A stretch of DNA of 64,000 nucleotides from Candidatus Multivoradales bacterium (GTDB lineage: Bacteria; Acidobacteriota; Thermoanaerobaculia; Multivoradales; JAHEKO01). This document shows, piece by piece, positions 4,064-37,068 of the stretch. Position numbers and translations under genes: made by a program. The stretch lies in assembly GCA_965223855.1 (NCBI GenBank), contig CBDCXM010000009.1, positions 224,001 to 288,000 of the forward strand, in the 5' to 3' direction. The number at the start of each line of letters is the position of its first letter. The stretch's first letter is position 1. The notes below the pieces were generated by a model. The model was given only the letters and a program-made list of their open reading frames with translations, had not been told where the DNA came from and made no database searches.

Positions 4064-4943
4064 GACGCTCGTGCCGGAGACGCCGAAGCGTGACTCGGAG
4101 ACTGCCAGGGTGTCGGACGTTCGAGTGCTCGTGCTGACCGGCCTCGGCCTCAACTGCGAAGAGGAGACGGCCGAGGGCTTCCGCCGCGCCGGAGCGACCC
4201 CCGAGCTGGTGCCGCTGGTCGATCATCTCGACGGGACCGCTCCACGGCCGCTTTCGGACTACTCGATCGTCGCGTTCGCCGGCGGTTTCGCTTTCGGCGA
4301 TCACCTAGGTGCCGGCTTCGTCTATGCCAACAAGATCCGATGGCGGCTCTACGACCAGATGCTCGAGTTCATCGACCGTGGCGGACTGGCGCTCGGGATC
4401 TGCAACGGCTTCCAGATGATGGCGCGACTCGGCATGCTTCCCGGATTCGACGGCGACTACCGGACGCCGCTGGCGACACTGGCGCCGAACGACCGGCTCG
4501 GCTACTGGGACGACTGGGTCGAGCTGGCCGCCGATCCGCGTTCACCCTGCGTCTGGACACGCGGCATCGACACCCTGGAGCTCCCCACCCGGCACGGTGA
4601 AGGGAAGTTCCTCACCGCCACGCCCGAGATTCTCGAGCGCATGGAGGACGGTCACCAGATTGCCCTGCGCTACGTCGACGCCGAGGGTCGGGTGACCGAG
4701 TCGTGGCCGGAGAATCCGAACGGCTCGCCCGGCGGCGTCGCCGGCGTCTGTGACCCGAGCGGGCGGCTGTTCGGGCTGATGCCTCATCCGGATGCCTTTC
4801 TGCACGACTTTCAGCATCCGCAGTGGTTCAGGCAGGAGAACCGGAGGGCCGCCGCTGCCGGAGAATCGAGCGACGGCGACGGGCTGGCGATCTTCCGCAA
4901 CGGCGTGGAAGCCGCCATGGCGCAACTCGCCGGCGGCGTGTAA
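4056..4943 (+). CDS. purQ: FGAM synthase glutaminase subunit PurQ
   Basis: GLNCEEE, GGFAFGDHLGAG, LGICNGFQ (catalytic Cys), HGEG, NPNGS, GLMPHPD; overlaps the purL stop. Confidence 0.95.
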   Translation: MPETLVPETPKRDSETARVSDVRVLVLTGLGLNCEEETAEGFRRAGATPELVPLVDHLDGTAPRPLSDYSIVAFAGGFAFGDHLGAGFVYANKIRWRLYDQMLEFIDRGGLALGICNGFQMMARLGMLPGFDGDYRTPLATLAPNDRLGYWDDWVELAADPRSPCVWTRGIDTLELPTRHGEGKFLTATPEILERMEDGHQIALRYVDAEGRVTESWPENPNGSPGGVAGVCDPSGRLFGLMPHPDAFLHDFQHPQWFRQENRRAAAAGESSDGDGLAIFRNGVEAAMAQLAGGV

Positions 4944-4976
4944 CGCTTCCCGCAGTCTTTCGCCTGAGAGTCCGAT

Positions 4977-5009
4977 CCGGTGGTCTCGACCGCCGACTCC
5001 GAACCACCG
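4977..5009 (+). repeat. Left arm of a 33-bp imperfect inverted repeat flanking the DUF1326 gene
   Basis: ccggtggtctcgaccgccgactccgaaccaccg matches the reverse complement of 5780-5812 at 28/33 positions. Confidence 0.5.
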
Positions 5010-5056
5010 CGCCCGGGGTGCACGCTCGTGCGCCCCATCCCTCGAGGAGACCCGAC

Positions 5057-5767
5057 ATGCTTCCATCGCCCTTCCTGTCCCGCATCGCCGCCGGCGCCCT
5101 CGCCCTCGGCCTGATTCTGGTTCCCGCCGTGGCCGAGACCGGCTCCGGCTGGGCGATCCGTGGCTACCTCTCGGACGCCTGCCAGTGCACCGTGTTCTGT
5201 GCCTGCGAGTTCGCCGAGAAGCCGACCTTCGGACACTGCAACGACACCGCGATCCTCCACGTCGATGAGGGTCATTGGGGTGAGGTCGACCTCTCCGGTC
5301 ATCGGATCGTCATCGTCTCCAAGAGCCCTGACGGCGAGCGGCTCGTCGATACGGTCGGCCATCTCGACTTCGCGCACATGTACGTGCCCGAGCAGGCGAC
5401 CGAGGTGCAGGCCGCGGCGCTCGCCGACCTCGCGCGTCAGGTCTTCGGCACCTGGGTCGAGGGGAAGACCACGCAGATCTCGGACCACGAGACGGTCGAG
5501 CGAGTCCCGATGGAGGTGTCGATCGAGCCGCGCCGCCACGTCGTCAGGATCCCCGGCATCCTCGAGCTCGACATCGAGGCACTCACCGGATGGGACGGCG
5601 AGGATCCTGTGACGCTCGTCAACGGGCCGGCTGCCGCGGAAGGGATGGAGCCGATCCTCGTCGCGCGTTCCAACGCCTACCGCTATACAGACCACGGTAT
5701 CGACTGGGACTACGGCGGTCGCAGCGCCTCGATCCGGCCGCTCGATCTGTCGGGCGACGTCGAGTAG
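5057..5767 (+). CDS. DUF1326-family Cys-rich protein with predicted signal peptide
   Basis: GAGGAG RBS before ATG 5057; hydrophobic N-terminus ending PAVA-E; WAIRG..DACQCTVFCAC..PTFGHC..IHVDEG-like..VDLSG pattern. Confidence 0.75.
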   Translation: MLPSPFLSRIAAGALALGLILVPAVAETGSGWAIRGYLSDACQCTVFCACEFAEKPTFGHCNDTAILHVDEGHWGEVDLSGHRIVIVSKSPDGERLVDTVGHLDFAHMYVPEQATEVQAAALADLARQVFGTWVEGKTTQISDHETVERVPMEVSIEPRRHVVRIPGILELDIEALTGWDGEDPVTLVNGPAAAEGMEPILVARSNAYRYTDHGIDWDYGGRSASIRPLDLSGDVE

Positions 5768-5779
5768 CGCCGCCGTTCA

Positions 5780-5812
5780 CGGTGGTTCTCAGCCGGCGGT
5801 CGAGGCCGCCGG
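5780..5812 (-). repeat. Right arm of the 33-bp imperfect inverted repeat
   Basis: Pairs with 4977-5009; overlaps the last codons of the MBL gene. Confidence 0.5.
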
Positions 5813-6655
5813 CCGCTCGTCGGGCTCGACACCGGGCTCGACGACACCCACCGCTTCGATCGCCAGCCACGGCGTCGGCACGCTCTGCTCGCTGACGCAG
5901 ACGCTGGCGGGGGAGTCGCACTCCGAGAGCACCCGACGGATCGCATCGGCGGCGAGCGCCGGGTCGTTGTTGACCTCCGAAAGGTGGAACAACACCACCC
6001 ACTGAAGACGCTCGCTGACGAGCTCCGCGAGGCCCTCGGCCGCCTCGCGGTTGGAGAGATGCCCGTAGCGGCTCGCGACCCGCTGCTTCAGGTGCCACGG
6101 ATAGGGTCCGTTGCGCAGCATTTCAAGGTCGTGGTTGGTCTCGACCACGAGGCCGTCGAGATCCCGCAGGTGCGCCCACGCGAGGCGGCTCGCCGTTCCG
6201 ATGTCGCTCACGAAGCCGACCCGCCGACCGGAACCGTCTTCGAGGGCGAGCCCGATCGGGTCCTCGGCGTCATGAGGGATCCGGAACGGCTGGGCCACGA
6301 AACCTCCCACCCTTTCCTGGCGGCTCGACACGAGCTCCCTCGTCGTTACGCGGTCGCCCAGACGGCTCTTTTCCAGGGTCGCAGCGGTCCCGAGGACCGT
6401 CGCGCCGTAGCGCCTGGCGAAGACGGCAGCCCCACGGACATGATCGCCATGCTCGTGGGAGAGCACGATGTTCCCCACCGTCGAGGGCTCGACGCCGACC
6501 GCGCGCAAGCGCTTCTCGATCTGCTTGCACGAGAAGCCGGCATCGATCAGCAGGCGGTCGCTGCCCGACTCGACCACGACACTGTTCCCGGCGCTGCCGG
6601 AGCCGAGCACGCACAGGCGCAGGGGGGCCGGAGCCAGACCGAGCGGGAGTTGCAC
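5789..6655 (-). CDS. MBL-fold metallo-hydrolase (YycJ/WalJ-like)
   Basis: VLGSGSAGN, LIDAG, SHEHGDH, PHDA, ETNHD, YPWHLKQRV..GHLSN, HLSEVNN. Confidence 0.88.
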   Translation of the reverse strand: MQLPLGLAPAPLRLCVLGSGSAGNSVVVESGSDRLLIDAGFSCKQIEKRLRAVGVEPSTVGNIVLSHEHGDHVRGAAVFARRYGATVLGTAATLEKSRLGDRVTTRELVSSRQERVGGFVAQPFRIPHDAEDPIGLALEDGSGRRVGFVSDIGTASRLAWAHLRDLDGLVVETNHDLEMLRNGPYPWHLKQRVASRYGHLSNREAAEGLAELVSERLQWVVLFHLSEVNNDPALAADAIRRVLSECDSPASVCVSEQSVPTPWLAIEAVGVVEPGVEPDERPAASTAG

Positions 6656-6711
6656 CGCGGCAAGCTATCACGCGCCCGCGGGGCCGAAATCGGGCCCCTC
6701 TGCGCCCGAAG

Positions 6712-26706: not shown

Positions 26707-28376
26707 TCGCAGCCGGGGACTCCCCGTGCCCCTCGCCCTGCTGTTGGTGTCGCTCGCCGGCCTCGCGGTCGGCTGCGGCCACAAGAAGCCGCCCATCCCT
26801 CCGCCGCTCAAGCAGCCTCAGGCGGGCACGATCGTCCTGGAGCAGAGGGGCAGCGAAGCGTTCGTCACCTTCGCCTATCCGACGCTCACGGTCAGTGGCA
26901 CCGCGCTCTCGGGCGTCGAGCGCATCGAACTGTGGCGGCTGCAACAGGAGGTACCGGCCTTCGCCCTCGACATCATGGCCCGCGAGTCTCTGGCTCGCGA
27001 ACGGGCCGAGGCGCTGTTGCTGGAGAACGGCCTCGGACCGACCGGCCTGCCGCTCGTCCCGATCGACCCCGAGACCGGCCTGCCGATCACAAGCCCGATC
27101 GACCCCCTGACGGGCGAGCCGGCGGCCGCAGACTCCATGGCCGCCGAACCCGCACCCGGTGAGCCCACCGCGACCGCCGATCCCGCGAGCGCCAGGACTG
27201 GCGAGGCCACCACCGAGGCGGGCGGAGAGGATGCCGAGGGAGAGGGCGCCGAGACTGAGGAGGAGGAGCTCGACGAGGAGCTCCAGGCCGACATCGACGC
27301 CGCGGTGACGCTGTTGCGCAGTCCGGAGCGGTCGATCGAGGAGTTCCTGTCGGCGACCCCCGACGACTTCCGGGCGGAGGCGGAGATGATCGCCGAGATC
27401 GAAAGTGAGGCGATCTCCGCCGCCGTCGTCGGGGAGTCGATCGTGCTGAGAACCGACGTGCCCCTGCCGGAGAGATCGATGGACGAGCTCGTCGCCGAGC
27501 TGGCAGAGGAGCTGGCAGCGGAAGAGCAGGCGGCAGAGCAGGCGGCCCGGGAGGCGGCGGCGCTCGAGGAGAGCGCGGAGGAGGGCGCGGAGGAGAACGA
27601 AGAGCCGACGGACCCGGCCGCCTCCGACGAGGACTCCGGAGAGCTCTTCTCCCATCGACGAACCGATGGATGAAGACGAGCCGATGGACGAGGAGCCGGA
27701 GGTGGACCCGCTCTACGGGTTCCTCTACTCGATCCGCATCTTCCCCACCGACGGTCGACCTTCCGACTTCGCCCCGCTCGTGGGCCTCTTCCCGCTGCGC
27801 CCCCCGCCACCGCCGAGTGACGTCGAGGTCGAAGCGGCCGCGGCCGCGATCGAAGTGACGTGGGAGTCCGAAGAGGATCCGAAGAACGGCTTCCGGGTCT
27901 ATCGCCGCGAAGCCAAGTCGCGGCTCTACGGCCCGGCGGTCGGGACCCTTCCCGGCTCGTCGCGCAGCTACCGGGACGCCTCCGCGATCTACGGCGCCCG
28001 CTACATCTACGGGGTGACGGCCGTCGGTCGCGCTAATCCACTGATCGAGAGCGAGATCCCGTCGGAGCACGAGGTCGACTACCAGGATCGCTTCGGCCCG
28101 GAGAAGCCGGGCAATCTGGTCGCGTTCCCCGAGGCCAGCAGGATCCGACTGCTGTGGGACGCCTCGAACGCCGCCGACTTCGCCGGCTATCGGATCTATC
28201 GGCGCGCGGAAGGCAGCGAAGAGGAGATCCTGGTCACCGAGGAGCTCGTGACCCGCAGCCAGTACGTCGACGAAAGCGTGCTGTCCGGGCAGGTGTGGTT
28301 CTACAGCGTGACCTCCGTGGACGCCCTGGGCAACACCAGCGACCCGGCGAAGGAGATCCGGGTCCAGGTCCCCTGA
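26696..28376 (+). CDS. Lipoprotein with acidic low-complexity insert and C-terminal fibronectin-III-like domains, split by a +1 frameshift near 27652
   Basis: Lipobox LAVGC then GHKKPPIPP; removing one C from ttc tcc cat joins [13 protein letters not shown]; Fn3 cues [43 protein letters not shown]. Confidence 0.75.
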
Positions 28377-28377
28377 C

Positions 28378-29238
28378 GTGCCGGCCTCCGTCCCGGCCTT
28401 CCTTTTGAGCGGCGGGGGTAACGACTTCCTCGCCCTCGTCGAGCCCGAACGGGTTCCGGAGGCGGCCACCATCCGCGCCTGGTGCACGCGCGGGCTGTCG
28501 GTCGGGGCCGACGGGCTCTTCGTGCTGCGACGCGAAGCCGGCGGCGCGGTGCGCATGGACCATTTCAACGCCGACGGCGGTGCCGCGGAGCTCTGTCTCA
28601 ACGGCAGCCGTTGCGCCGCCGTGCTCTCCCGCAGGCTCGGCTGGGCGGACCGGCAGGTCGAGCTCCAGACCGCAGCCGGCCAGGTCTCGGCGACTCTCGT
28701 CGGCGAGCATCGGGTCCGCCTCAGCCTCGACCCGCCGGCCGCGGCTCCGGTCGAGAAGCACCTCGACCTCGAGCCGGGGGCCGCAGGCGAGACGGGGATC
28801 ACAGGCTGGTTCGTCACCGTCGGGGTGCCCCAGTTCGTCGTCGCCCGGCCCGAGAGTCTCGCCGACACACCGGTCGCCGAGCTCGGTCGCCGCCTGCGCC
28901 ACCATCCCGCGTTCGGCGACGCCGGGACCAACGTCATGTTCGTCCGCTTCGCCTCCGCACGTCTCGAGATGCGCAGTTTCGAGCGCGGCGTCGAAGCCGA
29001 GACGCTCGCCTGTGGAACGGGAGCGCTGGCGGCGGCGGCGGTTGCAGTCGCACATCGCGGTCTCTCCGTGCCGCTCGAGATCCTCACCGGCGGCGGCACC
29101 GTGCTGCGGGTGGACGGCACCGTTGACGACGGCCGCTTCGAAGATTGGAGCCTGGAGGGCGACGCCCGCTGTCTCGCGCGTCTCGACCTGCTGGCCGGTT
29201 CGATCGACCTCCCCGCTGCGCCGCGCTGGTCCCCCTGA
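28378..29238 (+). CDS. dapF: Diaminopimelate epimerase
   Basis: GGGNDF, GADG, FNADGGAAELCLNGSRC, GTNVMF, FERGVEAETLACGTGA. Confidence 0.93.
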   Translation: MPASVPAFLLSGGGNDFLALVEPERVPEAATIRAWCTRGLSVGADGLFVLRREAGGAVRMDHFNADGGAAELCLNGSRCAAVLSRRLGWADRQVELQTAAGQVSATLVGEHRVRLSLDPPAAAPVEKHLDLEPGAAGETGITGWFVTVGVPQFVVARPESLADTPVAELGRRLRHHPAFGDAGTNVMFVRFASARLEMRSFERGVEAETLACGTGALAAAAVAVAHRGLSVPLEILTGGGTVLRVDGTVDDGRFEDWSLEGDARCLARLDLLAGSIDLPAAPRWSP

Positions 29239-29264
29239 CCCCTCCTCGTGGTAGAACTCCGCCG

Positions 29265-30491
29265 ATGAGCGAGACGCCGTTCCCAGCCGTCGCCGAGCAG
29301 CTCGCCGTGCTCCGGCGCGGCTTGGTCGACCTCGTCGACGAGGAACAGCTCGCCGCCAAACTCGAGGCGTCGCGAACAAGCGGACGACCACTGACGGTCA
29401 AGACCGGGTTCGACGCCTCGGCGCCGGATCTTCACCTCGGCCACTGCGTGCTGCTCGAGAAGATGCGCCAGTTCCAGCAACTGGGACATCGGGTGGTCTT
29501 CCTGATCGGCGACTTCACCGCCATGATCGGCGACCCTACGGGCAAGAAACTGACCCGGCCTCAGCTCAGCCGCGAGGAGGTTCTCGAGAACTCCGCGACC
29601 TACGAGCGCCAGGTCTGGAAGGTGCTCGATCGCGAGCACACGGTCGTCGACTACAACAGCAAGTGGCTCGACCCGCTCGGTTCCCAGGGGCTCATCCGAC
29701 TCGCCGGCAAGTATCCGCTCGCGCGCATGATGGAGCGCGACGACTTCCGCTCGCGCTGGGAGGCGCACCAGACGATCAGCCTTCACGAGCTCCTCTATCC
29801 GCTCGTCCAGGGGTACGACTCGGTCGCATTGGAGGCCGACGTCGAGCTCGGCGGTCACGATCAGATCTTCAACCTGCTCGTCGGGCGCACTCTGATGAAG
29901 GAGCACGGGCTCGATCCCCAGGTGGTGCTGACCGTGCCGCTGCTCGTCGGCATCGACGGCAGCGACAAGATGTCGAAGAGCCTCGGCAACGCCATCGGCG
30001 TCGAAGACCCACCCGGGGAGATGTACGGCCGCACGCTGTCGATCCCCGACGATCTGATGTGGGCCTGGTGGCTGCTTTTGACCGACCTCGGCGAAGGCGA
30101 GATCGATCGCCGCAGGTCGGAGGTAGCGGCCGGCGAGCTTCACCCCAAGTCGGTCAAACAGGAACTGGCCCGCCGCCTCGTGACGAGGTTCCACGACCGC
30201 GCCGCCGCCGAGGCCGCCGAACGCGAGTTCGAGGCCGTGTTTACTGCCGGCGGCGAGCCGGACGAGGTCGAGGAGCACTCGTTCGAAGGATCGACGCGCC
30301 TGCTGACAATCCTCACGGATACCGGACTCGCTTCCAGCAACGCAGAGGGGAAGCGACTGCTCAAGCAGGGGGCCGTATCGATCGACGGGACGAAGGTAAC
30401 CGACCCCGAGGCGCTCCATCTGGAGCTCGCCCCCGGCAGCTACCTGCTCAAGGTCGGAAAACGGCGCTTCGCCCGCGCCCTGGTGACGTGA
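29265..30491 (+). CDS. tyrS: Tyrosine--tRNA ligase
   Basis: GFDASAPDLHLGH, IGDPTGK, YPLVQGYDS, ELGGHDQIFN, KMSKS, C-terminal S4 domain. Confidence 0.97.
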   Translation: MSETPFPAVAEQLAVLRRGLVDLVDEEQLAAKLEASRTSGRPLTVKTGFDASAPDLHLGHCVLLEKMRQFQQLGHRVVFLIGDFTAMIGDPTGKKLTRPQLSREEVLENSATYERQVWKVLDREHTVVDYNSKWLDPLGSQGLIRLAGKYPLARMMERDDFRSRWEAHQTISLHELLYPLVQGYDSVALEADVELGGHDQIFNLLVGRTLMKEHGLDPQVVLTVPLLVGIDGSDKMSKSLGNAIGVEDPPGEMYGRTLSIPDDLMWAWWLLLTDLGEGEIDRRRSEVAAGELHPKSVKQELARRLVTRFHDRAAAEAAEREFEAVFTAGGEPDEVEEHSFEGSTRLLTILTDTGLASSNAEGKRLLKQGAVSIDGTKVTDPEALHLELAPGSYLLKVGKRRFARALVT

Positions 30492-31321
30492 CGGGCGAGA
30501 GGGCAGAGCGCTCTCACACCCAGGGCCGTCCCCTGCCCGACGAAGTCGGCTCCCTCCCGGCGGACGAGGCGATCCCCGCGCTCTTCGCGGAGCACGGCGG
30601 GCGGCTCTTCGGCCTCGGCCTGCGACTGTGCGGATCTCCCGAGGACGCCGAGGAGCTGGTGCAGGACATCTTCCTGACCGCCTTCAGAAGTTGGGATCAG
30701 TTCGAGGGTCGATCGAAGCCGACGACCTGGCTCTACACCATCGCCACCCGAGCCTGCATGCGCAAGCACCGCAAGCGGGCGGGCGAACCGGACACCCTCC
30801 AGTCCCTGGATGCGCTGGTTCCGCACGACGAGTCGACGGTCCCGGCGCTCGATGAGGCCGACCCGTTCGAACGACGGGTGCGCAGCGAGATTCAGGAGCG
30901 GATCGAGACGGCGTTGACGAGCGTGCCGCCGGACTTCCGCATGGCGCTGGTTCTCAAGGACATCGCCGAGCTCAGCGTCGCCGAGGTGGCGACCGTGCTC
31001 GGCATCAAGGAGGCGACGGTCAAGACACGGGTCTACCGGGCTCGGCTTGCGCTCAGAAAGGCACTGGCCGAGTCGCTCCCGCAGCGGCCGGTAGTCGACC
31101 CGGACGCGCCACCGATCTGTCGAGACCTCCTGCTGGCCAAGCTCGATGCACTCGACCGCGGGGTCGACTTCCCTCTCGCGAAGGAGCTGCTCTCCGACCG
31201 CTGCGGCTCGTTCTTCCGGACCCTCGACCTGACGCGCGAGGCGTGCAGGCGCATCGGCGAGGGGACGATCCCCTCGAAGATCCGCGAACGGCTCGGGACG
31301 GCGATCAGAGAGCCGGCCTGA
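30488..31321 (+). CDS. ECF RNA polymerase sigma factor with ~80-aa Cys-containing C-terminal extension
   Basis: Region 2 DAEELVQDIFL..FEGRSKPTTWLYTIA; region 4 LVLKDIAELSVAEVATVLGIKEATVKTRVYRARLALR; tail PICRDLL...SDRCGSF...EACRRI; GTGA overlap with tyrS. Confidence 0.9.
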   Translation: MTGERAERSHTQGRPLPDEVGSLPADEAIPALFAEHGGRLFGLGLRLCGSPEDAEELVQDIFLTAFRSWDQFEGRSKPTTWLYTIATRACMRKHRKRAGEPDTLQSLDALVPHDESTVPALDEADPFERRVRSEIQERIETALTSVPPDFRMALVLKDIAELSVAEVATVLGIKEATVKTRVYRARLALRKALAESLPQRPVVDPDAPPICRDLLLAKLDALDRGVDFPLAKELLSDRCGSFFRTLDLTREACRRIGEGTIPSKIRERLGTAIREPA

Positions 31322-31354: not shown

Positions 31355-32758
31355 TCAGGAAGCCTCCTCGTAGCGCGCGAAGGCGTCGTCGACGTAGCGC
31401 ACTTCGATCCCCTCGCGCGCCAGCAGGGCGGCTGCCGCCGCGGCTCGGGCGCCGCTCTTGCAGTGCACCAGCCAGGTGGCTTCGCGGTCCACCTCGTCGA
31501 CCCGGTCGAGCAAACGGGTGTGGGCGATGTTGGCGGCCCCGGGCACGTGGCCGGCGGCGTACTCCGACGCCCCTCGAACGTCGAGGACCCGATGCCGATC
31601 GTCTCCACGCAACCGCTCGACCGCCTCGAAGTCGATCACCGGCGTCGAGGTCAGGTCCGGCGCTCCGACGAGATCTTCGGGCGGCAGGAAACCGACGACC
31701 CGATCCAGGCCGATCCTCACGAGATCCCGCACCGCCTCCTCGAGGCGCCTTTCGTCGAGAACCAGGTAGATCTCCTCCTCCGGCCGCACATAGGAGCCCG
31801 CGACCGTCGGAAACGACTTGTTGAACGGAGCGTAGAGGGAGCCTGGAAGGTGTCCCTCCATGAACGCCGCGCGATCTCCGCGAGTGTCGAGCACGACAGC
31901 TCCTCTTTCGAGGGCGGCCGTCACCTCTGCGAGCGAGGTTCGGACCGGCGCCGGGAGTCCTCCGAGGAGCGGCGGCCCCTCCTTGTTGAGCTTCTTCATC
32001 CGCGCGAAGTAGAGCGGGGGCTCGGGCTGGCCCTCGAGGATCGACGCGACGAACGACTCCCGGCCCCTTCGCGCCGCGTCGATGGCCGCATTGGACCTGG
32101 TCTCGTAGCCGACGGTCGACATCGGAACCGCACCGAGCGCCTTGCCACAGGCACTCCCTGCGCCATGCGCGGGCCACACCTGCAGGAACTCGGGCAGCTC
32201 GAGGAAGAGCGACAGGGAGTCGAAGAGCCGCTCGGCCGACGGCTCCATCGCGCCCGCGACGCCGGCGGCCGATTCGAGCAGGTCGGGCCGTCCGAGGTCG
32301 CCCACGAACACGAAATCACCGGTCGCGATGCCGATCGGCTCGCTCATTCCCGATCCGTGATCGGTGACGGTGAAACTCAGATGCTCAGGGGTGTGCCCCG
32401 GTGTATGGACCGCCTGGATCTCGATGTTCCCGACACGGAACACGTCACCGTGATGCAGAAGGGTGACGTCGTAGTCGCTCCCCTTCGCCCACTCGTACTT
32501 CCAGTCGGCGTCTCCCTCGTCGGAGAGATAGAGGTGCGCGCCGGTCTGCTCTGCGAGCTCGCGGGCTCCGGAGAGGAAATCTGCATGGATGTGAGTCTCC
32601 GTCACCGCCGTGAGCGTGAGGCCTTCGGCGCGGACGATCTCGAGGTAACGGTCGCTGTCTCGCTCGGGATCGATCAGCAGCGCCTCCCCGGTCCGCTGGC
32701 AGCCGACGAGGTAGGCGTATTGCGCGAGCTTCGGGTCGTAGATCTGTCGAAAAAGCAT
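31355..32758 (-). CDS. Persulfide dioxygenase-rhodanese fusion (CstB/Blh-like MBL plus two rhodanese domains)
   Basis: ETHIHADFLSG, HTPGHTPEH, GDFVFVGDLGRPDL, PAHGAGSACGK, GHLPGS, GHVPGA, HCKSGAR. Confidence 0.88.
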   Translation of the reverse strand: MLFRQIYDPKLAQYAYLVGCQRTGEALLIDPERDSDRYLEIVRAEGLTLTAVTETHIHADFLSGARELAEQTGAHLYLSDEGDADWKYEWAKGSDYDVTLLHHGDVFRVGNIEIQAVHTPGHTPEHLSFTVTDHGSGMSEPIGIATGDFVFVGDLGRPDLLESAAGVAGAMEPSAERLFDSLSLFLELPEFLQVWPAHGAGSACGKALGAVPMSTVGYETRSNAAIDAARRGRESFVASILEGQPEPPLYFARMKKLNKEGPPLLGGLPAPVRTSLAEVTAALERGAVVLDTRGDRAAFMEGHLPGSLYAPFNKSFPTVAGSYVRPEEEIYLVLDERRLEEAVRDLVRIGLDRVVGFLPPEDLVGAPDLTSTPVIDFEAVERLRGDDRHRVLDVRGASEYAAGHVPGAANIAHTRLLDRVDEVDREATWLVHCKSGARAAAAAALLAREGIEVRYVDDAFARYEEAS

Positions 32759-32839: not shown

Positions 32840-33280
32840 TCAATGAGGCAGCGACGGGCGAAGCAGAGCGTAGACCCAGGTTCCAGCCAGCGCGCTGACG
32901 AGCAGGACCCCCGCGCCCGCCACACCGTTGCCGAGCAGCGCGAAGATCGGGCCGGGGCAGGCGCCCGCCAGGCCCCATCCGAGGCCGAAGAGGCTGCCGC
33001 CGACGGCGTAACGGATGCCACGGCCCAGGACCTTGGGCGGCACCTCGATCGGATCGCCCGCGAGATCGGTGCCGACTCTCCTCTTGACGAGGGCGACGCC
33101 GACGGAGGCCACAGCGACGGCCGAAACGATCACCCCGTACATGTGGAAACTGTGAAAGCGGAACATCTCCTGGATCCGGTACCAGGAGATGATCTGCGAC
33201 TGCGTCGCCGTGACTCCGAACAGCACTCCCAGCAACAGGTACGGCACGAGGTTCGTCACCGTCGGTAGCTGCCGGTTCAT
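32840..33280 (-). CDS. YeeE/YedE (DUF6691-like) sulfur transport membrane protein
   Basis: SWYRIQEMFRFHSFHMYG, GGSLFGLGWGLAGACPGP. Confidence 0.88.
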   Translation of the reverse strand: MNRQLPTVTNLVPYLLLGVLFGVTATQSQIISWYRIQEMFRFHSFHMYGVIVSAVAVASVGVALVKRRVGTDLAGDPIEVPPKVLGRGIRYAVGGSLFGLGWGLAGACPGPIFALLGNGVAGAGVLLVSALAGTWVYALLRPSLPH

Positions 33281-33837
33281 CGCAGCACCCACGGCAGCAG
33301 GACATGGGTCGCCACGAGCCCGCCGGCGAAGAAGCCGAGCACTGCCAGCAGCGAGGCGGGTTGGCGATCGGCGAGTCCGGAGATCGCGTGGCCGGACGTG
33401 CAACCTCCGGCGTAGCGGGCGCCGAAGCCGACGAGGAACCCTCCGCCCACCAGCAGTACGAGACTCGGGCCTGTCCCGAGAGAGCCCGCTCCGAAGATTT
33501 CCGCCGGCACGAGACCCGTCGGGGCGCCCAGCCCCAGCTCGGTCAGCGCGCTCGTCGTGCGCGCATCCAACGCGACCTCCGCCGGCCCGAGCCAGGTCGC
33601 CGCGACCCAACCGCCGGCAACGATGCCGAGTGCGAATACGAGATTCCACCCTCCGCTGCCCCACCAGTCATAGCGCAGAAACGACGGCTTCCTCGGAATC
33701 ACGGCCGCGCACAGATGACGCAGGTTCGACGAGATCCCGAACTGGCGACCGCCGACGATGAGCAGCATCGGCACCAGAGCACCGATGATCGGTCCGGCCA
33801 CGTACCACGGCCAGGGTTCTTTGAGCGTTTCGATCAT
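33277..33837 (-). CDS. YeeE/YedE thiosulfate-transporter-family membrane protein
   Basis: PWPWYVAGP, FGISSNLRHLCA, GGFLVGFGARYAGGCTSGHAISGL. Confidence 0.9.
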   Translation of the reverse strand: MIETLKEPWPWYVAGPIIGALVPMLLIVGGRQFGISSNLRHLCAAVIPRKPSFLRYDWWGSGGWNLVFALGIVAGGWVAATWLGPAEVALDARTTSALTELGLGAPTGLVPAEIFGAGSLGTGPSLVLLVGGGFLVGFGARYAGGCTSGHAISGLADRQPASLLAVLGFFAGGLVATHVLLPWVLR

Positions 33838-35609
33838 GAAGTTCCTCCCTGAGCTCTGAGAGAGCCCGGTCGCTGCTTCGCAACCAGGGTATCGACCGCC
33901 TCCTGGGTGCTGAGAAAAATCCGTCCTGGTGTCATCGACTCGACGAAGGAAACCCGCTGAAGCCGGTCCATGACCGGACCCTTGACCTCCGCGAGATGAA
34001 ACGTGACTCCCGCACTGTCGAGCTCGACCCTCAAGGTCTCCAGAGTCTCGAGGGCGCTGCCGTCGATGAAGTTGACCGCACTGGCGATCAATACGAAGTC
34101 GCGCAGGCGCGGGCGCTCCGCAACTGCCCGTAGAACCTCGTCTTCGAGATTCCGCGCGTTGGCGAAGTAGAGGCTCTCGTCGACCCTCACCAGCAGCAGC
34201 TCGGGCCAGGTCTCCACCTGATGTCGAAGGACGTTGCGATAGTGCTCGCTGCCGGCGACGCGACCCACCACCGCCATGTGAGGCTGCGTCGTTCTCCAGA
34301 CGTGGAGCGCCACCGCCACCACCGCGCCGATCACGATCCCGGCTTCGACGCCGAGCACGAGCACGGCTGCGAACGTCGTCGTGAAAGCCGCGCCGTCCGC
34401 TCGGCTGTACTTCCAGGCGCGCACCGCCGCTCGCCAGTCGACGAGTTGGGCGACCGCAACGACGATGATCGCCGCCAGTGCGGCCTTCGGCAGATGGTGG
34501 AAGGCTGGAGTCATCCAAATCACCGCCACCGCGACGAGCGCAGCCGTGACCAGCGCCGCCAGGCCCGACCGGGCGCCGGCGGTGAAGTTCACCATCGAGC
34601 GGCTGAAGCCGCCGGTCACGGGATAGCCGCCGGTGAACGCAGCACCGAGGTTGGCCACGCCGAGCGCCAGCAGCTCCTGGTTCGCCCGCACCCGCTCGCG
34701 GCGCTTCGCGGCCAGCACCCTCGCAATGGCAAAGCTCTCGAGGAAGCCGATGAAGCAGATCGCGACCGCCGTCGGCAGCAGCACTCGAAGCGCCGCCGCG
34801 TCGAGCGGCGGTCGGCCGACGGCGGGAAGCCCCTGGGGGATGACGCCGACGACCGCCACGGAGGCTCTCTCATCGAGCGACATGGCAGCGGTCAGTGCCG
34901 CGGTCACGCCAACTGCGACGAAAGGTCCCGTCTTCGCCAGCGGTGCGGCCCAACTCTCGCTCGCGCCCGCACGCACCAGCAATGGGCCCAGCCGGCTGCG
35001 GAAGAAGAGGAGGATCGACAACGCCGTGAGCGTCAGCAGCACGGTGGTCGGGTTGACCTGTCCGAGACGCTCGACCACCGCTTGCACGGTCTCGAGGAAT
35101 CCCTCGGGCCGCCCGATCTCGAGGCCGAACAGGTGCCTCAGCTGGCTGCCGGCGATCACCAGTGCCGCAGCGGAGGTGAAACCGGCAAGAACGGCATGAC
35201 TGAGGAAGTTGACGAGGAAACCCATGCGGGCCAGACCCATCGCCGCCTGAAGCAAGCCGACCATCAGCGCGAGAGTCAGGGCGTATCCGACGAACGCCTC
35301 GGTCCCCGGTTCGGCGAGCTCCGACACGCCGGTCGCCACCAGCAGAGAGACGATCGCCACCGGCCCGACAGCGAGCGACGTGCTGGTGCCGAAGATCGCG
35401 TAGAGCGCAACCGGGACGATGCTGGCGTAGAGCCCCACCTGGGCCGGCAGCCCGGCCAGCAACGCATAGGCCATCGCCTGCGGCACCAGCATGATCGCCA
35501 CCACGAGCCCGGCAACCAGGTCGCTGGGCAGATCGCCACGGCGATAGGAGGGCAGCCACGAAGCGGCGGGCAGCCAGCGTGCGAGACCGGTGCTCGAAGG
35601 GGTCGCCAA
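33834..35609 (-). CDS. sulP: SulP family anion transporter with STAS domain
   Basis: DLVAGLVVAIMLVPQAMAYALLAGLP..GLY, NQELLALG, GGYPVTGGFSRS, RVDESLYFANA, VNFIDGSA. Confidence 0.93.
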   Translation of the reverse strand: MATPSSTGLARWLPAASWLPSYRRGDLPSDLVAGLVVAIMLVPQAMAYALLAGLPAQVGLYASIVPVALYAIFGTSTSLAVGPVAIVSLLVATGVSELAEPGTEAFVGYALTLALMVGLLQAAMGLARMGFLVNFLSHAVLAGFTSAAALVIAGSQLRHLFGLEIGRPEGFLETVQAVVERLGQVNPTTVLLTLTALSILLFFRSRLGPLLVRAGASESWAAPLAKTGPFVAVGVTAALTAAMSLDERASVAVVGVIPQGLPAVGRPPLDAAALRVLLPTAVAICFIGFLESFAIARVLAAKRRERVRANQELLALGVANLGAAFTGGYPVTGGFSRSMVNFTAGARSGLAALVTAALVAVAVIWMTPAFHHLPKAALAAIIVVAVAQLVDWRAAVRAWKYSRADGAAFTTTFAAVLVLGVEAGIVIGAVVAVALHVWRTTQPHMAVVGRVAGSEHYRNVLRHQVETWPELLLVRVDESLYFANARNLEDEVLRAVAERPRLRDFVLIASAVNFIDGSALETLETLRVELDSAGVTFHLAEVKGPVMDRLQRVSFVESMTPGRIFLSTQEAVDTLVAKQRPGSLRAQGGTS

Positions 35610-35738: not shown

Positions 35739-35769
35739 TGAGAGACACGGGCCGCCCTCGAGGTTCCCG
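35739..35769 (-). promoter_or_regulatory. ECF-type promoter (GGAACC-N15-GTCTCT) facing sulP-yeeE-yeeE-pdo
   Basis: Minus strand CGGGAACCTCG-agggcggc-CCGTGTCTCTCA, same arms and spacing as the plus-strand copy. Confidence 0.75.
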
Positions 35770-35777
35770 CCGATACC

Positions 35778-35808
35778 CGGGAACCTCGGACGGCTTCCGT
35801 GTCTCTCA
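35778..35808 (+). promoter_or_regulatory. ECF-type promoter (GGAACC-N15-GTCTCT) facing sqr
   Basis: CGGGAACCTCG-gacggctt-CCGTGTCTCTCA, 57 nt upstream of the sqr ATG. Confidence 0.75.
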
Positions 35809-35865: not shown

Positions 35866-37068
35866 ATGAGCACTCACCATCACAGGATCGTCATCGTCGG
35901 CGGGGGCAACGCCGGCCTCTCGGTGGCCGCCCAACTGCTGCGCAAGGACCGCTCGCTCGACATCGCGATCCTCGATCCCGCCGAGCAGCACTACTACCAG
36001 CCGGCCTGGACTCTGGTCGGCGGGGGCGACTTCGACGTACGTGACACGGTCCGCCCCCAGAAGGACGTGATGCCGGAAGGGGTCACCTGGATTCGAGAGG
36101 CGGTGGAGACCTTCCAGCCGGAGGAGAAGACCGTGACCACCACCTCGGGCTCGTCGGTCGGCTACGACCTGCTGGTGGCCTGCCCCGGCATCCAGCTCAA
36201 CTGGGACGCGATTCCGGGACTCACCGACACCCTCGGACGCAACGGCGTCTGCAGCAACTACGGATTCGACCTCGCCCCCTACACTCATGAGTGCATCCGG
36301 AAGTTCGAAGGGGGCACCGCTCTCTTCACCCAGCCGGGAACTCCCATCAAGTGCGGTGGCGCGCCGCAGAAGATCATGTACCTCGCCGCCGACAACTTCC
36401 GGCGGCGTTCGCTCGGTGACGCCGCATCCATCGAGTTCTGCACCGCCGGCGGTGTCATCTTCGGCGTCGAGAAGTACGCCAGGCGCCTGCTCGAGGTCTG
36501 CGAACGCTACGGCATCGAGCTTCGCTTCCTTCACAACCTGGTCGCGATCGACGGCCCCGGCAAGACGGCCACCTTCGAAGTCACCGACACTGCGACCGGC
36601 GAGAAGACCGGGGTGACGAAGTCCTTCGACATGATCCACGTCTGCCCGCCACAGTCGGCTCCCGACTTCGTGCGCGAGAGCCCGCTCGCGGGCGAGGCAG
36701 GCTGGATCGATGTCGACAAAGCGACGTTGCAGCACAGCCGTTTCCCCGACGTCTTCGCGCTGGGCGACGCCACGAACACGCCGAACGCCAAGACCGGAGC
36801 CGCCATCCGCAAGCAGGCGCCGGTGCTGGTCGCCAACCTGCTGAGCCACCTGAGGTCGGAGCCGTTGACGGCGACCTACGGGGGCTACGGCTCCTGCCCT
36901 CTCGTCACCGGCTACGGCAGGCTCATCCTGGCCGAGTTCGACTACGCGAACGAGCCGGCCGAGACCTTCCCGTTCGATCAGAGCAAGGAGCGCTGGTCGA
37001 TGTACCAGCTCAAGAAGCGAGTGCTCCCGTGGCTCTACTGGAACAAGATTCTGAAGGGGACCGCCTGA
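35866..37068 (+). CDS. sqr: Sulfide:quinone oxidoreductase (type II-like)
   Basis: AAGGAG RBS; IVGGGNAG, HYYQPAWTLVGGG, PIKCGGAPQK, FALGD, AKTGAAIRKQAP, YGSCPLVTG, ETFPFDQSKER. Confidence 0.9.
   Translation: MSTHHHRIVIVGGGNAGLSVAAQLLRKDRSLDIAILDPAEQHYYQPAWTLVGGGDFDVRDTVRPQKDVMPEGVTWIREAVETFQPEEKTVTTTSGSSVGYDLLVACPGIQLNWDAIPGLTDTLGRNGVCSNYGFDLAPYTHECIRKFEGGTALFTQPGTPIKCGGAPQKIMYLAADNFRRRSLGDAASIEFCTAGGVIFGVEKYARRLLEVCERYGIELRFLHNLVAIDGPGKTATFEVTDTATGEKTGVTKSFDMIHVCPPQSAPDFVRESPLAGEAGWIDVDKATLQHSRFPDVFALGDATNTPNAKTGAAIRKQAPVLVANLLSHLRSEPLTATYGGYGSCPLVTGYGRLILAEFDYANEPAETFPFDQSKERWSMYQLKKRVLPWLYWNKILKGTA

Follow-up and report, generated by a model that had tools for sequence, protein, structure and literature searches.

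The gene described here encodes an extracytoplasmic function (ECF) sigma factor. It lies next to sulfide-oxidation genes in a stretch of 64,000 nucleotides (the window) from Candidatus Multivoradales bacterium, an acidobacterium (contig CBDCXM010000009.1, positions 224,001 to 288,000). Its 277-codon open frame occupies 30488-31321 on the plus strand, and the GTG start shares 4 bases with the TGA stop of tyrS. A preliminary description of this DNA had proposed that an ECF sigma factor is fused here to a degenerate anti-sigma-like tail. The tail residues it quoted are present in the translation, and Pfam domains together with a profile match of the tail bear the proposal out. Throughout, the gene is compared with 61 further loci of its family (14 on contigs of named genomes, 28 in genomes of relatives and 19 on metagenome contigs), many of them on contigs shorter than 4 kb. 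Known anti-sigma domains of the relevant type are the zinc-binding anti-sigma (ZAS) proteins, which belong with Pfam zf-HC2. The gene and its parts are as follows.

29145 to 30491, plus strand: tyrosyl-tRNA synthetase gene (tyrS), named from the translation of its open reading frame (ORF).
30488 to 31321, plus strand: ECF sigma factor gene with fused tail, 277 amino acids (aa) plus stop, GTG start.
30581 to 30781, plus strand: sigma region 2, residues 32-98 (Pfam PF04542 Sigma70_r2, E 5.8e-19).
30896 to 31054, plus strand: sigma region 4, residues 137-189 (Pfam PF08281 Sigma70_r4_2, E 1.1e-13).
31079 to 31318, plus strand: C-terminal tail, residues 198-277 (80 aa), degenerate zf-HC2/ZAS-like, no Pfam match.
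31118 to 31120, plus strand: codon of Cys211, equivalent to the first zinc-ligand cysteine of free ZAS proteins; Cys in 56/58 family loci that cover the position.
31193 to 31195, plus strand: codon of Ser236, at the first cysteine of CxxC; Cys in 54/58 covering family loci.
31202 to 31204, plus strand: codon of Cys239, second cysteine of CxxC; Cys in 58/58 covering family loci.
31244 to 31246, plus strand: codon of Cys253, 13 residues after Cys239, a spacing as in free ZAS proteins; Cys in 57/57 covering family loci.

Pfam finds regions 2 and 4 and neither region 1 nor region 3, which is the domain content of an ECF (group 4) sigma factor, and of the NCBIfam models just one, the sigma70-ECF superfamily, passes its cut-off (89.1 bits, cut-off 42.9). 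Region 4 is the part of a sigma factor that reads the -35 element. The solved sigma factors nearest in sequence are Mycobacterium tuberculosis SigE and Bacillus subtilis SigW, and the match to them ends at about residue 197. Over the remaining residues, about 198-277, the Pfam scan returns no match, and zf-HC2 is absent even at E <= 0.1.

Upstream, tyrS is the likely source of constitutive co-transcription of the sigma gene; a 402-aa gene on the same strand also precedes the sigma gene in locus L163. Long antisense ORFs lie opposite real genes in this region, for example 27087-30419 on the minus strand (1110 aa, opposite dapF and tyrS). Such frames are typical of DNA with 69 % GC and are not genes. 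The gene 3' of the sigma gene is a convergent gene for a persulfide dioxygenase (PDO) fused to rhodanese (31355-32758, minus strand). It had been stated that the sigma gene abuts the end of this gene, which is correct, but the two meet tail to tail, and the sigma gene lies outside the pdo operon. With these two neighbors no separate anti-sigma gene is adjacent, as the preliminary description had it. It also holds that regulators of the CstR, SqrR/BigR and FisR kinds are not encoded nearby: a scan of the window gives no CsoR-type, ArsR-type or sigma54-activator gene, of which there are 1, 7 and 20 matches elsewhere in the genome.

The origin of the tail becomes apparent when profiles are compared. 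An alignment of 51 tails (A5) was matched by hhalign to 34 small zf-HC2 proteins (A6), the products of the genes directly 3' of the closest unfused ECF genes; four of four A6 proteins tested reach the Pfam zf-HC2 cut-off. The match has a probability of 92.6 % and an E-value of 4.6e-7 over 78 columns, that is, over the whole tail. Despite the silence of the Pfam model, this comparison places the tail among the zf-HC2/ZAS homologues and agrees with the zf-HC2-like spacing noticed earlier. Judged by its profile, what is fused to the sigma factor is a ZAS-type anti-sigma domain in degenerate form. In the alignment the first zf-HC2 cysteine falls on Cys211 and the CxxC on Ser236 and Cys239, and Cys253 pairs with a further cysteine that is invariant in the free anti-sigma proteins, while the histidine of HxxxCxxC falls in a five-residue gap of the tail. 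The zinc motif of zf-HC2 (PF13490), H-x3-C-x2-C with an upstream ligand, is incomplete, with Cys211 and Cys239 left of its four ligands. The earlier impression that the histidine and the first cysteine are replaced and three cysteines remain can be made exact: the histidine is gone by a five-residue deletion, position 236 is Ser, and Cys211, Cys239 and Cys253 stay.

Among 43 aligned members of the family, the invariant tail positions include C211, L214, L215, K218, D223, R238, C239, F243, D247, C253 and P262. Conservation of the three cysteines in orthologs had been put forward as a check, and the rates listed above answer it. C48 and C90 of sigma region 2 are likewise invariant in the 43 members. 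They are kept in 60/61 and 59/61 fused relatives and in 79/84 and 76/84 unfused ones, and they may be part of a redox switch or may contact the anti-sigma domain. Most members have a fourth cysteine at position 236 (pattern C-x24-CxxC-x13-C), and there is often a His or Tyr five residues ahead of C211. In the closest subclade of the query, Ser or Thr stands at 236 in 17/18 closest sequences, "AP(P)" replaces the His segment and Asp237 is invariant; in P0019, which is 58 % identical to the query, both Cys and His are still present. As far as these alignments reach, the first cysteine of CxxC is lost solely in the query's subclade.

The free proteins deserve a remark of their own. In 106 of 127 control loci (a set of loci with unfused ECF genes that includes L014-L036 and L172-L232) a script finds a gene for an H-x3-C-x2-C protein of about 100 aa directly after the ECF gene. 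These soluble zf-HC2 partners (e.g., L016:2790-3089) have a basic, His-rich N-terminus and five conserved cysteines, one of which, 13 residues past the CxxC, is outside the classic ZAS motif yet invariant. Two other leads on the tail went no further. A WhiB-like Fe-S domain, prompted by the C...CxxC...C pattern, had no Pfam and no fold match and was dropped. In a protein-atlas comparison the top named cluster was again zf-HC2 anti-sigma, with a score of 0.80, which shuffled proteins attain in a third of cases, and we treat it as a lead only.

Fused sigma factors of this kind are numerous. A word-indexed search gives 1334 homologues at E <= 0.001, and the best 120 of these cover 87-100 % of the query at 50-75 % identity (100 % for the query's own record) and are 254-322 aa long. 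An exhaustive search of representatives gives 83 clusters at E <= 1e-30. The family spreads over Acidobacteriota, Planctomycetota and Gemmatimonadota. Of 61 genomes of relatives, 29 carry the sigma gene in one copy each (30 matches, one of them tail-less). The nearest tail-less ECF factors come mostly from Nitrospirota and are about 40 % identical over residues 32-194. Around the fused genes, a ranking of the Pfam families in 77 downstream and 65 upstream or more distant neighbors has no separate anti-sigma family in its first 25 places. In a tree of the sigma factors a single clade holds the 61 fused members and leaves out the 11 unfused ones (SH-aLRT 100), a split to which the tail columns left in the alignment may contribute. 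The family displays an evolutionary series from a free ZAS pair to a fusion with loss of the histidine and then to loss of a cysteine, and it bears on how zinc sites become redox or sulfur sensors.

Structure prediction gives a compact protein. The full-length AlphaFold2 model (43-row alignment) has a mean pLDDT of 82.7 and a pTM of 0.76, with pLDDT 90-93 over residues 200-250, and the tail modelled alone has a pLDDT of 85.0. Three helices are predicted in the tail (212-224, 237-258 and 263-274). The only strands of the model are 199-201 in the tail and 117-119 in the linker between sigma2 and sigma4, and these two probably pair. The modelled sigma core resembles anti-sigma-bound forms (SigW/RsiW, TMt 0.78-0.82; CnrH/CnrY, TMt 0.76, rmsd 4.0 A; RpoE/NepR, TMt 0.67) rather than RNA-polymerase-bound ECF factors (TMt 0.32-0.42, rmsd 27-28 A). 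As modelled, the compact form fits a closed, autoinhibited state. When core and tail are given as two chains, the ipSAE is 0.47, while the best of three controls has 0.00; contact agreement between runs is at least 70 %, and the partner pLDDT is at least 60. On the scale of the method this is weak support. The mark set for ipSAE is reached by 58 of 80 solved complexes and by 2 of 110 mismatched pairs, and values of 0.60 or less comprise only 7 of the 80 solved complexes plus both mismatches that passed.

What the sigma factor may control is suggested by the genes that follow it.

31355 to 32758, minus strand: gene for a PDO fused to two rhodanese domains (pdo; Pfam Lactamase_B, and Rhodanese in two stretches), last gene of the predicted target operon.
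32840 to 33843, minus strand: two YeeE/YedE-type sulfur-transport half-genes (Pfam Sulf_transp and DUF6691), with starts at about 33843 and about 33253 as inferred from ORF translations.
33834 to 35609, minus strand: gene for a SulP-family anion transporter with STAS domain (sulP; Pfam Sulfate_transp, E 7e-106, and STAS), which opens the predicted target operon.
35866 to 37068, plus strand: gene for a sulfide:quinone oxidoreductase (SQR)-like flavoprotein (sqr; Pfam Pyr_redox_2), a predicted target.

The divergent genes sulP and sqr are separated by a gap of 256 bases. Homologues of sqr with the same gene context occur in G001, a sister genome (67 % identical), and in locus L155 (56 %). Homologues of the pdo-proximal yeeE half-gene lie just before pdo in genomes G001, G002, G020, G029, G036 and G041.

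The neighborhood is not peculiar to the window. Of the 61 family loci, 10 have a homologue of PDO-rhodanese (40-67 % identity) no more than 10 kb from the sigma gene, arranged as follows.

L008 (Phycisphaerae), L011 (Thermoanaerobaculia), L125 and L166: pdo directly downstream, on the same strand.
L157: sigma-yeeE-pdo-sulP.
L170: pdo-sulP-sigma.
L082: pdo convergent with the sigma gene, as in the window.
L108: divergent yeeE-pdo.
L155 and L112: pdo 3.6-6 kb from the sigma gene.

Six more family loci (L009, L093, L129, L165, L114 and L128) have other sulfur-related neighbors. The genes after sigma encode a YgaP-type rhodanese in L009, DUF302 in L093 and L129 (in L129 alongside an SQR-like flavoprotein) and DUF442/BLH in L165, and L114 and L128 have weak SQR- or PDO-like matches (25-31 % identity) within 10 kb. 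Over 77 downstream genes the Pfam tally is headed by Rhodanese 8, Pterin_4a 6 (a syntenic group), Lactamase_B 5, OEP 3 and HlyD 3. A close PDO homologue occurs in 0 of the 127 control loci, where the lone match has 31 % identity. Relatives of the sigma gene are thus found together with pdo, sqr, yeeE or rhodanese genes far more often than chance would have it, and in at least two phyla. Linkage of orthologs to sqr, pdo and yeeE was another check put forward in the preliminary description, and against the control ECF loci it recurs. The sulfur-linked loci are scattered across the sigma tree and include a basal pair from Planctomycetota.

A second line of evidence comes from the gap between sulP and sqr. 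ECF promoters consist of a GGAAC-like -35 element and a short GC-rich -10 element containing CGT. The gap holds two mirror-image copies of GGGAACCTCG-N8-CCGTGTCTCTCA, one facing each operon, and these are the twin promoters that had been noted before.

35779 to 35808, plus strand: predicted sqr promoter, GGGAACC-N12-CGTGTCTCTCA, 58 bases before the ATG at 35866.
35739 to 35768, minus strand: predicted promoter of sulP-yeeE-yeeE-pdo, the mirror twin of the sqr promoter.

In form, the predicted GGAACC-N12-CGTGTCTCTCA is an ECF promoter, and it adjoins genes of the family. The 4.52-Mb genome holds three exact sites for GGAACC-N12-CGTGT, about as many as base composition leads one to expect by our own arithmetic (about 3), and two of the three are the twin. 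The third (C9:1200295) lies before or within a TonB-receptor-like fragment, lacks the TCTCA extension and was set aside as chance. With the exact patterns used, the full motif occurs in the window genome at the sulfide-oxidation operons only. The twin is also present between sqr and sulP in G001.

In other genomes the motif with the extended -10 element CGTGTCTCTCA lies between the sigma gene and pdo (L011, L125), before yeeE (L157, G041), before pdo (L155, L166, G057, G051) and before DUF302 (L093). The element CGTGTCTCTCA is common to the pdo, yeeE, sqr and DUF302 sites of Acidobacteriota genomes and metagenome contigs. Taken together, such sites at target genes adjoining the sigma gene come from several phyla. 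Within about 450 bases around the sigma gene, and with at most one mismatch, the motif is found in 17 of the 61 family loci (8 of them exact) and in 0 of the 127 control loci. Between the end of its 23-base core and the start called for the next gene downstream lie 46-262 bases. Relatives without the sigma gene show the motif at 0 of 8 PDO genes (0 of 7 without the unpublished G005); these sigma-less relatives hold two distant one-mismatch matches, both without the extension. Where relatives have the sigma gene unlinked to PDO, a site stands at the PDO operon in 2 of 6. Across the 61 relatives GGAAC-N13-CGTGTCTC gives 17 matches, spread over 14 genomes, and its reversed control gives 2. The pattern is present in 10 of 29 genomes with the sigma gene and in 4 of 32 without it, a contrast that is overstated because related genomes are not independent.

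The sigma gene itself appears to lie outside this control. No motif with at most one mismatch was found upstream of the window's sigma gene on its own strand, and among the family loci there is one such case in 61 (L010, 379 bases upstream). Hence autoregulation is improbable, and the activity of the sigma factor must be set post-translationally.

Computation shows that the gene is a fusion, that its tail is homologous to ZAS proteins, that the cysteines and the promoter are conserved, and that the gene is linked to sulfur genes. We lean, on the whole, towards reading these results as a sigma/anti-sigma switch in one polypeptide, in which a thiol-reactive sulfur signal drives sqr and sulP-yeeE-yeeE-pdo. 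Within this reading the architecture and the regulon are likely, and for sulfane sulfur as the specific signal we see about an even chance. In evolution, an ECF sigma factor would have merged with its own partner, a small cytoplasmic anti-sigma domain of the ZAS type. The protein would be made constitutively, given that the gene begins within the end of tyrS and is not preceded by a promoter of its own type. At rest, the three-helix tail would keep sigma2 and sigma4 compact and unable to bind RNA polymerase. Persulfides or polysulfides from sulfide oxidation may then modify Cys211, Cys239 and Cys253, leaving persulfides or bridges of two to four sulfur atoms, and the modified tail would release the sigma factor. 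Once free, it would guide RNA polymerase to the twin GGAACC-N12-CGTGTCTCTCA sites, to sqr one way and to sulP-yeeE-yeeE-pdo/rhodanese the other way. Autoinhibition by the tail, the chemical signal and the release are what we infer.

The loss of the histidine family-wide and of Cys236 in the subclade suggests that zinc is held weakly and that the site acts as a dithiol or trithiol. Cys211 and Cys239 are presumably the counterparts of the pair that forms the trigger disulfide in RsrA. A narrower form of the proposal is that the tail is a zinc-free sulfane-sulfur switch in which Cys211 and Cys239, with Cys253 as third partner, become tri- or tetrasulfide-bridged as in CstR and SqrR; this we put forward tentatively, as a possibility that may well fail. 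If it were true, this would be the first sigma factor to sense reactive sulfur directly, in many Acidobacteriota and Planctomycetota it would be the principal sulfide regulator, and it would offer a single-gene part for sulfide biosensors with an orthogonal 29-base promoter.

Several observations weigh against the switch that we favor. First, 45 of the 61 family loci have no sulfur gene in the available stretch, which for many contigs is shorter than 4 kb. Genes for resistance-nodulation-division (RND) efflux pumps lie near the sigma gene in 11 of 39 loci, and two of five tested are of the CusA/CzcA type (1135 and 731 bits at a cut-off of 701). Five to seven family loci sit after dnaG-rpoD. 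Second, PDO and the sigma factor are only weakly associated, PDO being present in 11 of 29 genomes with the sigma gene and in 8 of 32 without it (the 8 PDO-only genomes include the unpublished G005). Altogether 19 of 61 relatives have PDO, and of the 11 with both genes only 5 have them linked. Third, the motif is found at other genes. In genomes without PDO it precedes a 110-aa thioredoxin gene (G028:C5:455179-455204, locus L263; G035:C224:5540-5565, locus L262) or a small YgaP-like membrane protein (G003 and G051, in G051 followed by an efflux gene). These targets in PDO-less relatives make the family regulon look like a thiol or sulfur-stress set. Fourth, G002, in which the sigma gene is divergent from yeeE-pdo, lacks the motif at up to two mismatches; its subclade may read a different promoter. 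Fifth, AlphaFold2 may be biased towards compact models of ECF factors in general, and a fold search with the tail alone gives nothing significant (Foldseek best E 2.2; VIA best Z 5.5, generic helical), with RseA and RsdA at E 7-9 only. The tail sequence has a single, irrelevant match among solved structures (E 1.4). What stands of the preliminary description is therefore the fused ZAS tail, the sulfur linkage, the cysteines and the promoter; its specificity for sulfane sulfur is called into question by the RND and housekeeping neighbors, the thioredoxin targets and the weak co-occurrence with PDO.

Some individual loci merit a description. In L113, L116, L117, L119, L123 and L171, from one family of relatives, the fused ECF gene stands between mutS2-dnaG-rpoD and a pterin-4a-carbinolamine dehydratase gene, and no sulfur gene is present. 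L244 (G002:C68:1-12000), from the same genus as the query, has a fused sigma factor of another subclade that is 47 % identical and whose tail ends in CRWV. In L237 (G049:C29, about 4495-6676), which lacks the sigma gene, a histidine kinase, an OmpR-type regulator and a BrxC-like monothiol redoxin precede PDO-rhodanese, and this two-component pair may be a different regulator of the same pathway. Beside PDO we found no recognisable regulator in the sigma-less G020 and G022, nor in G012, where the sigma gene is unlinked.

One could argue that the architecture and the targets are as we describe and that the factor responds to thiol oxidation in general or to electrophiles (disulfide stress, as for SigR-RsrA) and not to sulfane sulfur in particular, the sulfide genes being a lineage-specific part of the regulon. 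The thioredoxin sites of G028 and G035 would then be expected, as would the peroxiredoxin gene that comes first after the sigma gene in L162 and the AhpD-like CMD gene that comes second in L009. The tail is derived from ZAS, the best-known member of which senses disulfide stress, and by hhalign it keeps the cysteine equivalents of the ZAS site. General thiol stress fits less well with the window genome itself, where the only two full motif sites belong to sqr and to the pdo operon and a thioredoxin target was not found with the patterns used; and across the family sulfur-transfer genes are the commonest neighbors. We consider this explanation rather unlikely.

It is also conceivable that the tail is no sensor at all, but a structural or positively acting extension or a tag for proteolytic degradation, with sulfide control exerted through transcription of the sigma gene, a protease or a regulator that binds the palindrome. 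A review table files fused ECF270 members under "proteolysis," and the extensions of ECF42 and CorE are required for activity, according to the parts of PMC8999054 consulted. The two -10 elements of the window make up an inverted repeat to which a dimeric repressor could also bind. Outside the window the motif occurs in single copies of fixed orientation, at the distances from the start given above, and so looks like a promoter rather than a palindromic operator. The tail cysteines are nearly invariant, and no other regulator is encoded in the window. Hence we hold a non-sensor tail to be improbable.

A third idea is that the tail binds a thiophilic metal (Zn, Cd or Cu) as in a CorE-like sigma factor, the sulfide genes being co-regulated through the interaction of sulfide with metals. 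CorE and CorE2 are the precedent (PMC8999054, in the text consulted). The family-wide Cys4 pattern would suit such a site, and so would the RND genes, with their two CusA/CzcA-type members. As against this, the query subclade has lost one of the four cysteines and the family its histidine, neither the window's sigma gene nor the two target operons that carry the motif have a metal gene next to them, and no motif turned up ahead of the RND genes in L001, L112 and L128. Metal sensing is accordingly very improbable in our view. That the sigma factor has nothing to do with the neighboring sulfur genes is hardly credible: it is convergent with pdo and co-oriented with tyrS, and most family loci lack a sulfur gene, but the linkage recurs in various arrangements and phyla, the promoter motif is shared, and the motif is absent at the PDO genes of sigma-less relatives.

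A one-polypeptide switch that responds to thiol-reactive sulfur would matter for two practical reasons. The sqr/pdo clusters of poorly studied phyla, at the loci examined, had lacked an identified regulator. Furthermore, the sigma factor, its predicted sensor cysteines, the 29-base promoter and the target operons are all defined, which makes this a directly testable system.

Fused sigma/anti-sigma ECF factors and ZAS redox sensors are both already known kinds. The regulon of SigR includes thioredoxin. The closest comparison is with SigR-RsrA of Streptomyces coelicolor and other ECF-ZAS pairs, which share with our protein a small cytoplasmic helical domain with a cysteine close to where helix 1 begins and a CxxC later in the chain, and, in some relatives of the query, a thioredoxin gene among the predicted targets. 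Unlike in those pairs, the anti-sigma domain is fused here, the histidine is deleted, the first CxxC cysteine is Ser in the subclade, and the predicted targets in the window genome are sulfide-oxidation genes. ECF270 (Casas-Pastor 2021), with a soluble ZAS anti-sigma factor, an example from Acidobacteria and some fused members, resembles the query as the review describes it (PMC8999054); the text consulted does not give its target genes, promoter or signal. CorE/CorE2 (ECF238) and OrbS are likewise one-component ECF factors that have no anti-sigma gene and sense through C-terminal cysteines (PMC8999054, PMC7826278 and PMC9023288, in the parts consulted). The extensions of ECF238 are short, about 20 aa, bind metal and act positively, according to the available text of PMC7826278. 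The query differs from these in that its tail is 80 aa long, helical, homologous to anti-sigma domains and linked to sulfur genes, and its linker (residues 99-136) contains no cysteine, which sets it apart from a CorE-like (ECF238) factor.

Finally, CstR (CsoR), SqrR/BigR (ArsR), FisR (a sigma54 activator) and PerR resemble our system in what they control, namely genes of the sqr, pdo, rhodanese and yeeE types. In the parts consulted of 10.1101/2021.07.25.453692, PMC9995734 and PMC9952342, such regulators sense by persulfidation of cysteines or by polysulfide bridges, and for PerR the text of PMC9952342 provides a precedent in which a Zn-Cys4 site senses sulfane sulfur. Our literature search found no ECF sigma factor that controls sqr or pdo among the papers of the library searched; the supplementary group descriptions of PMC7826278 may mention a fused group. 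CstR, SqrR/BigR, FisR and PerR are repressors or enhancer-binding activators, and none is a sigma factor. Regulation of sulfide and persulfide metabolism by an ECF sigma factor would hence be of another kind than that by the known repressors and sigma54 activators.

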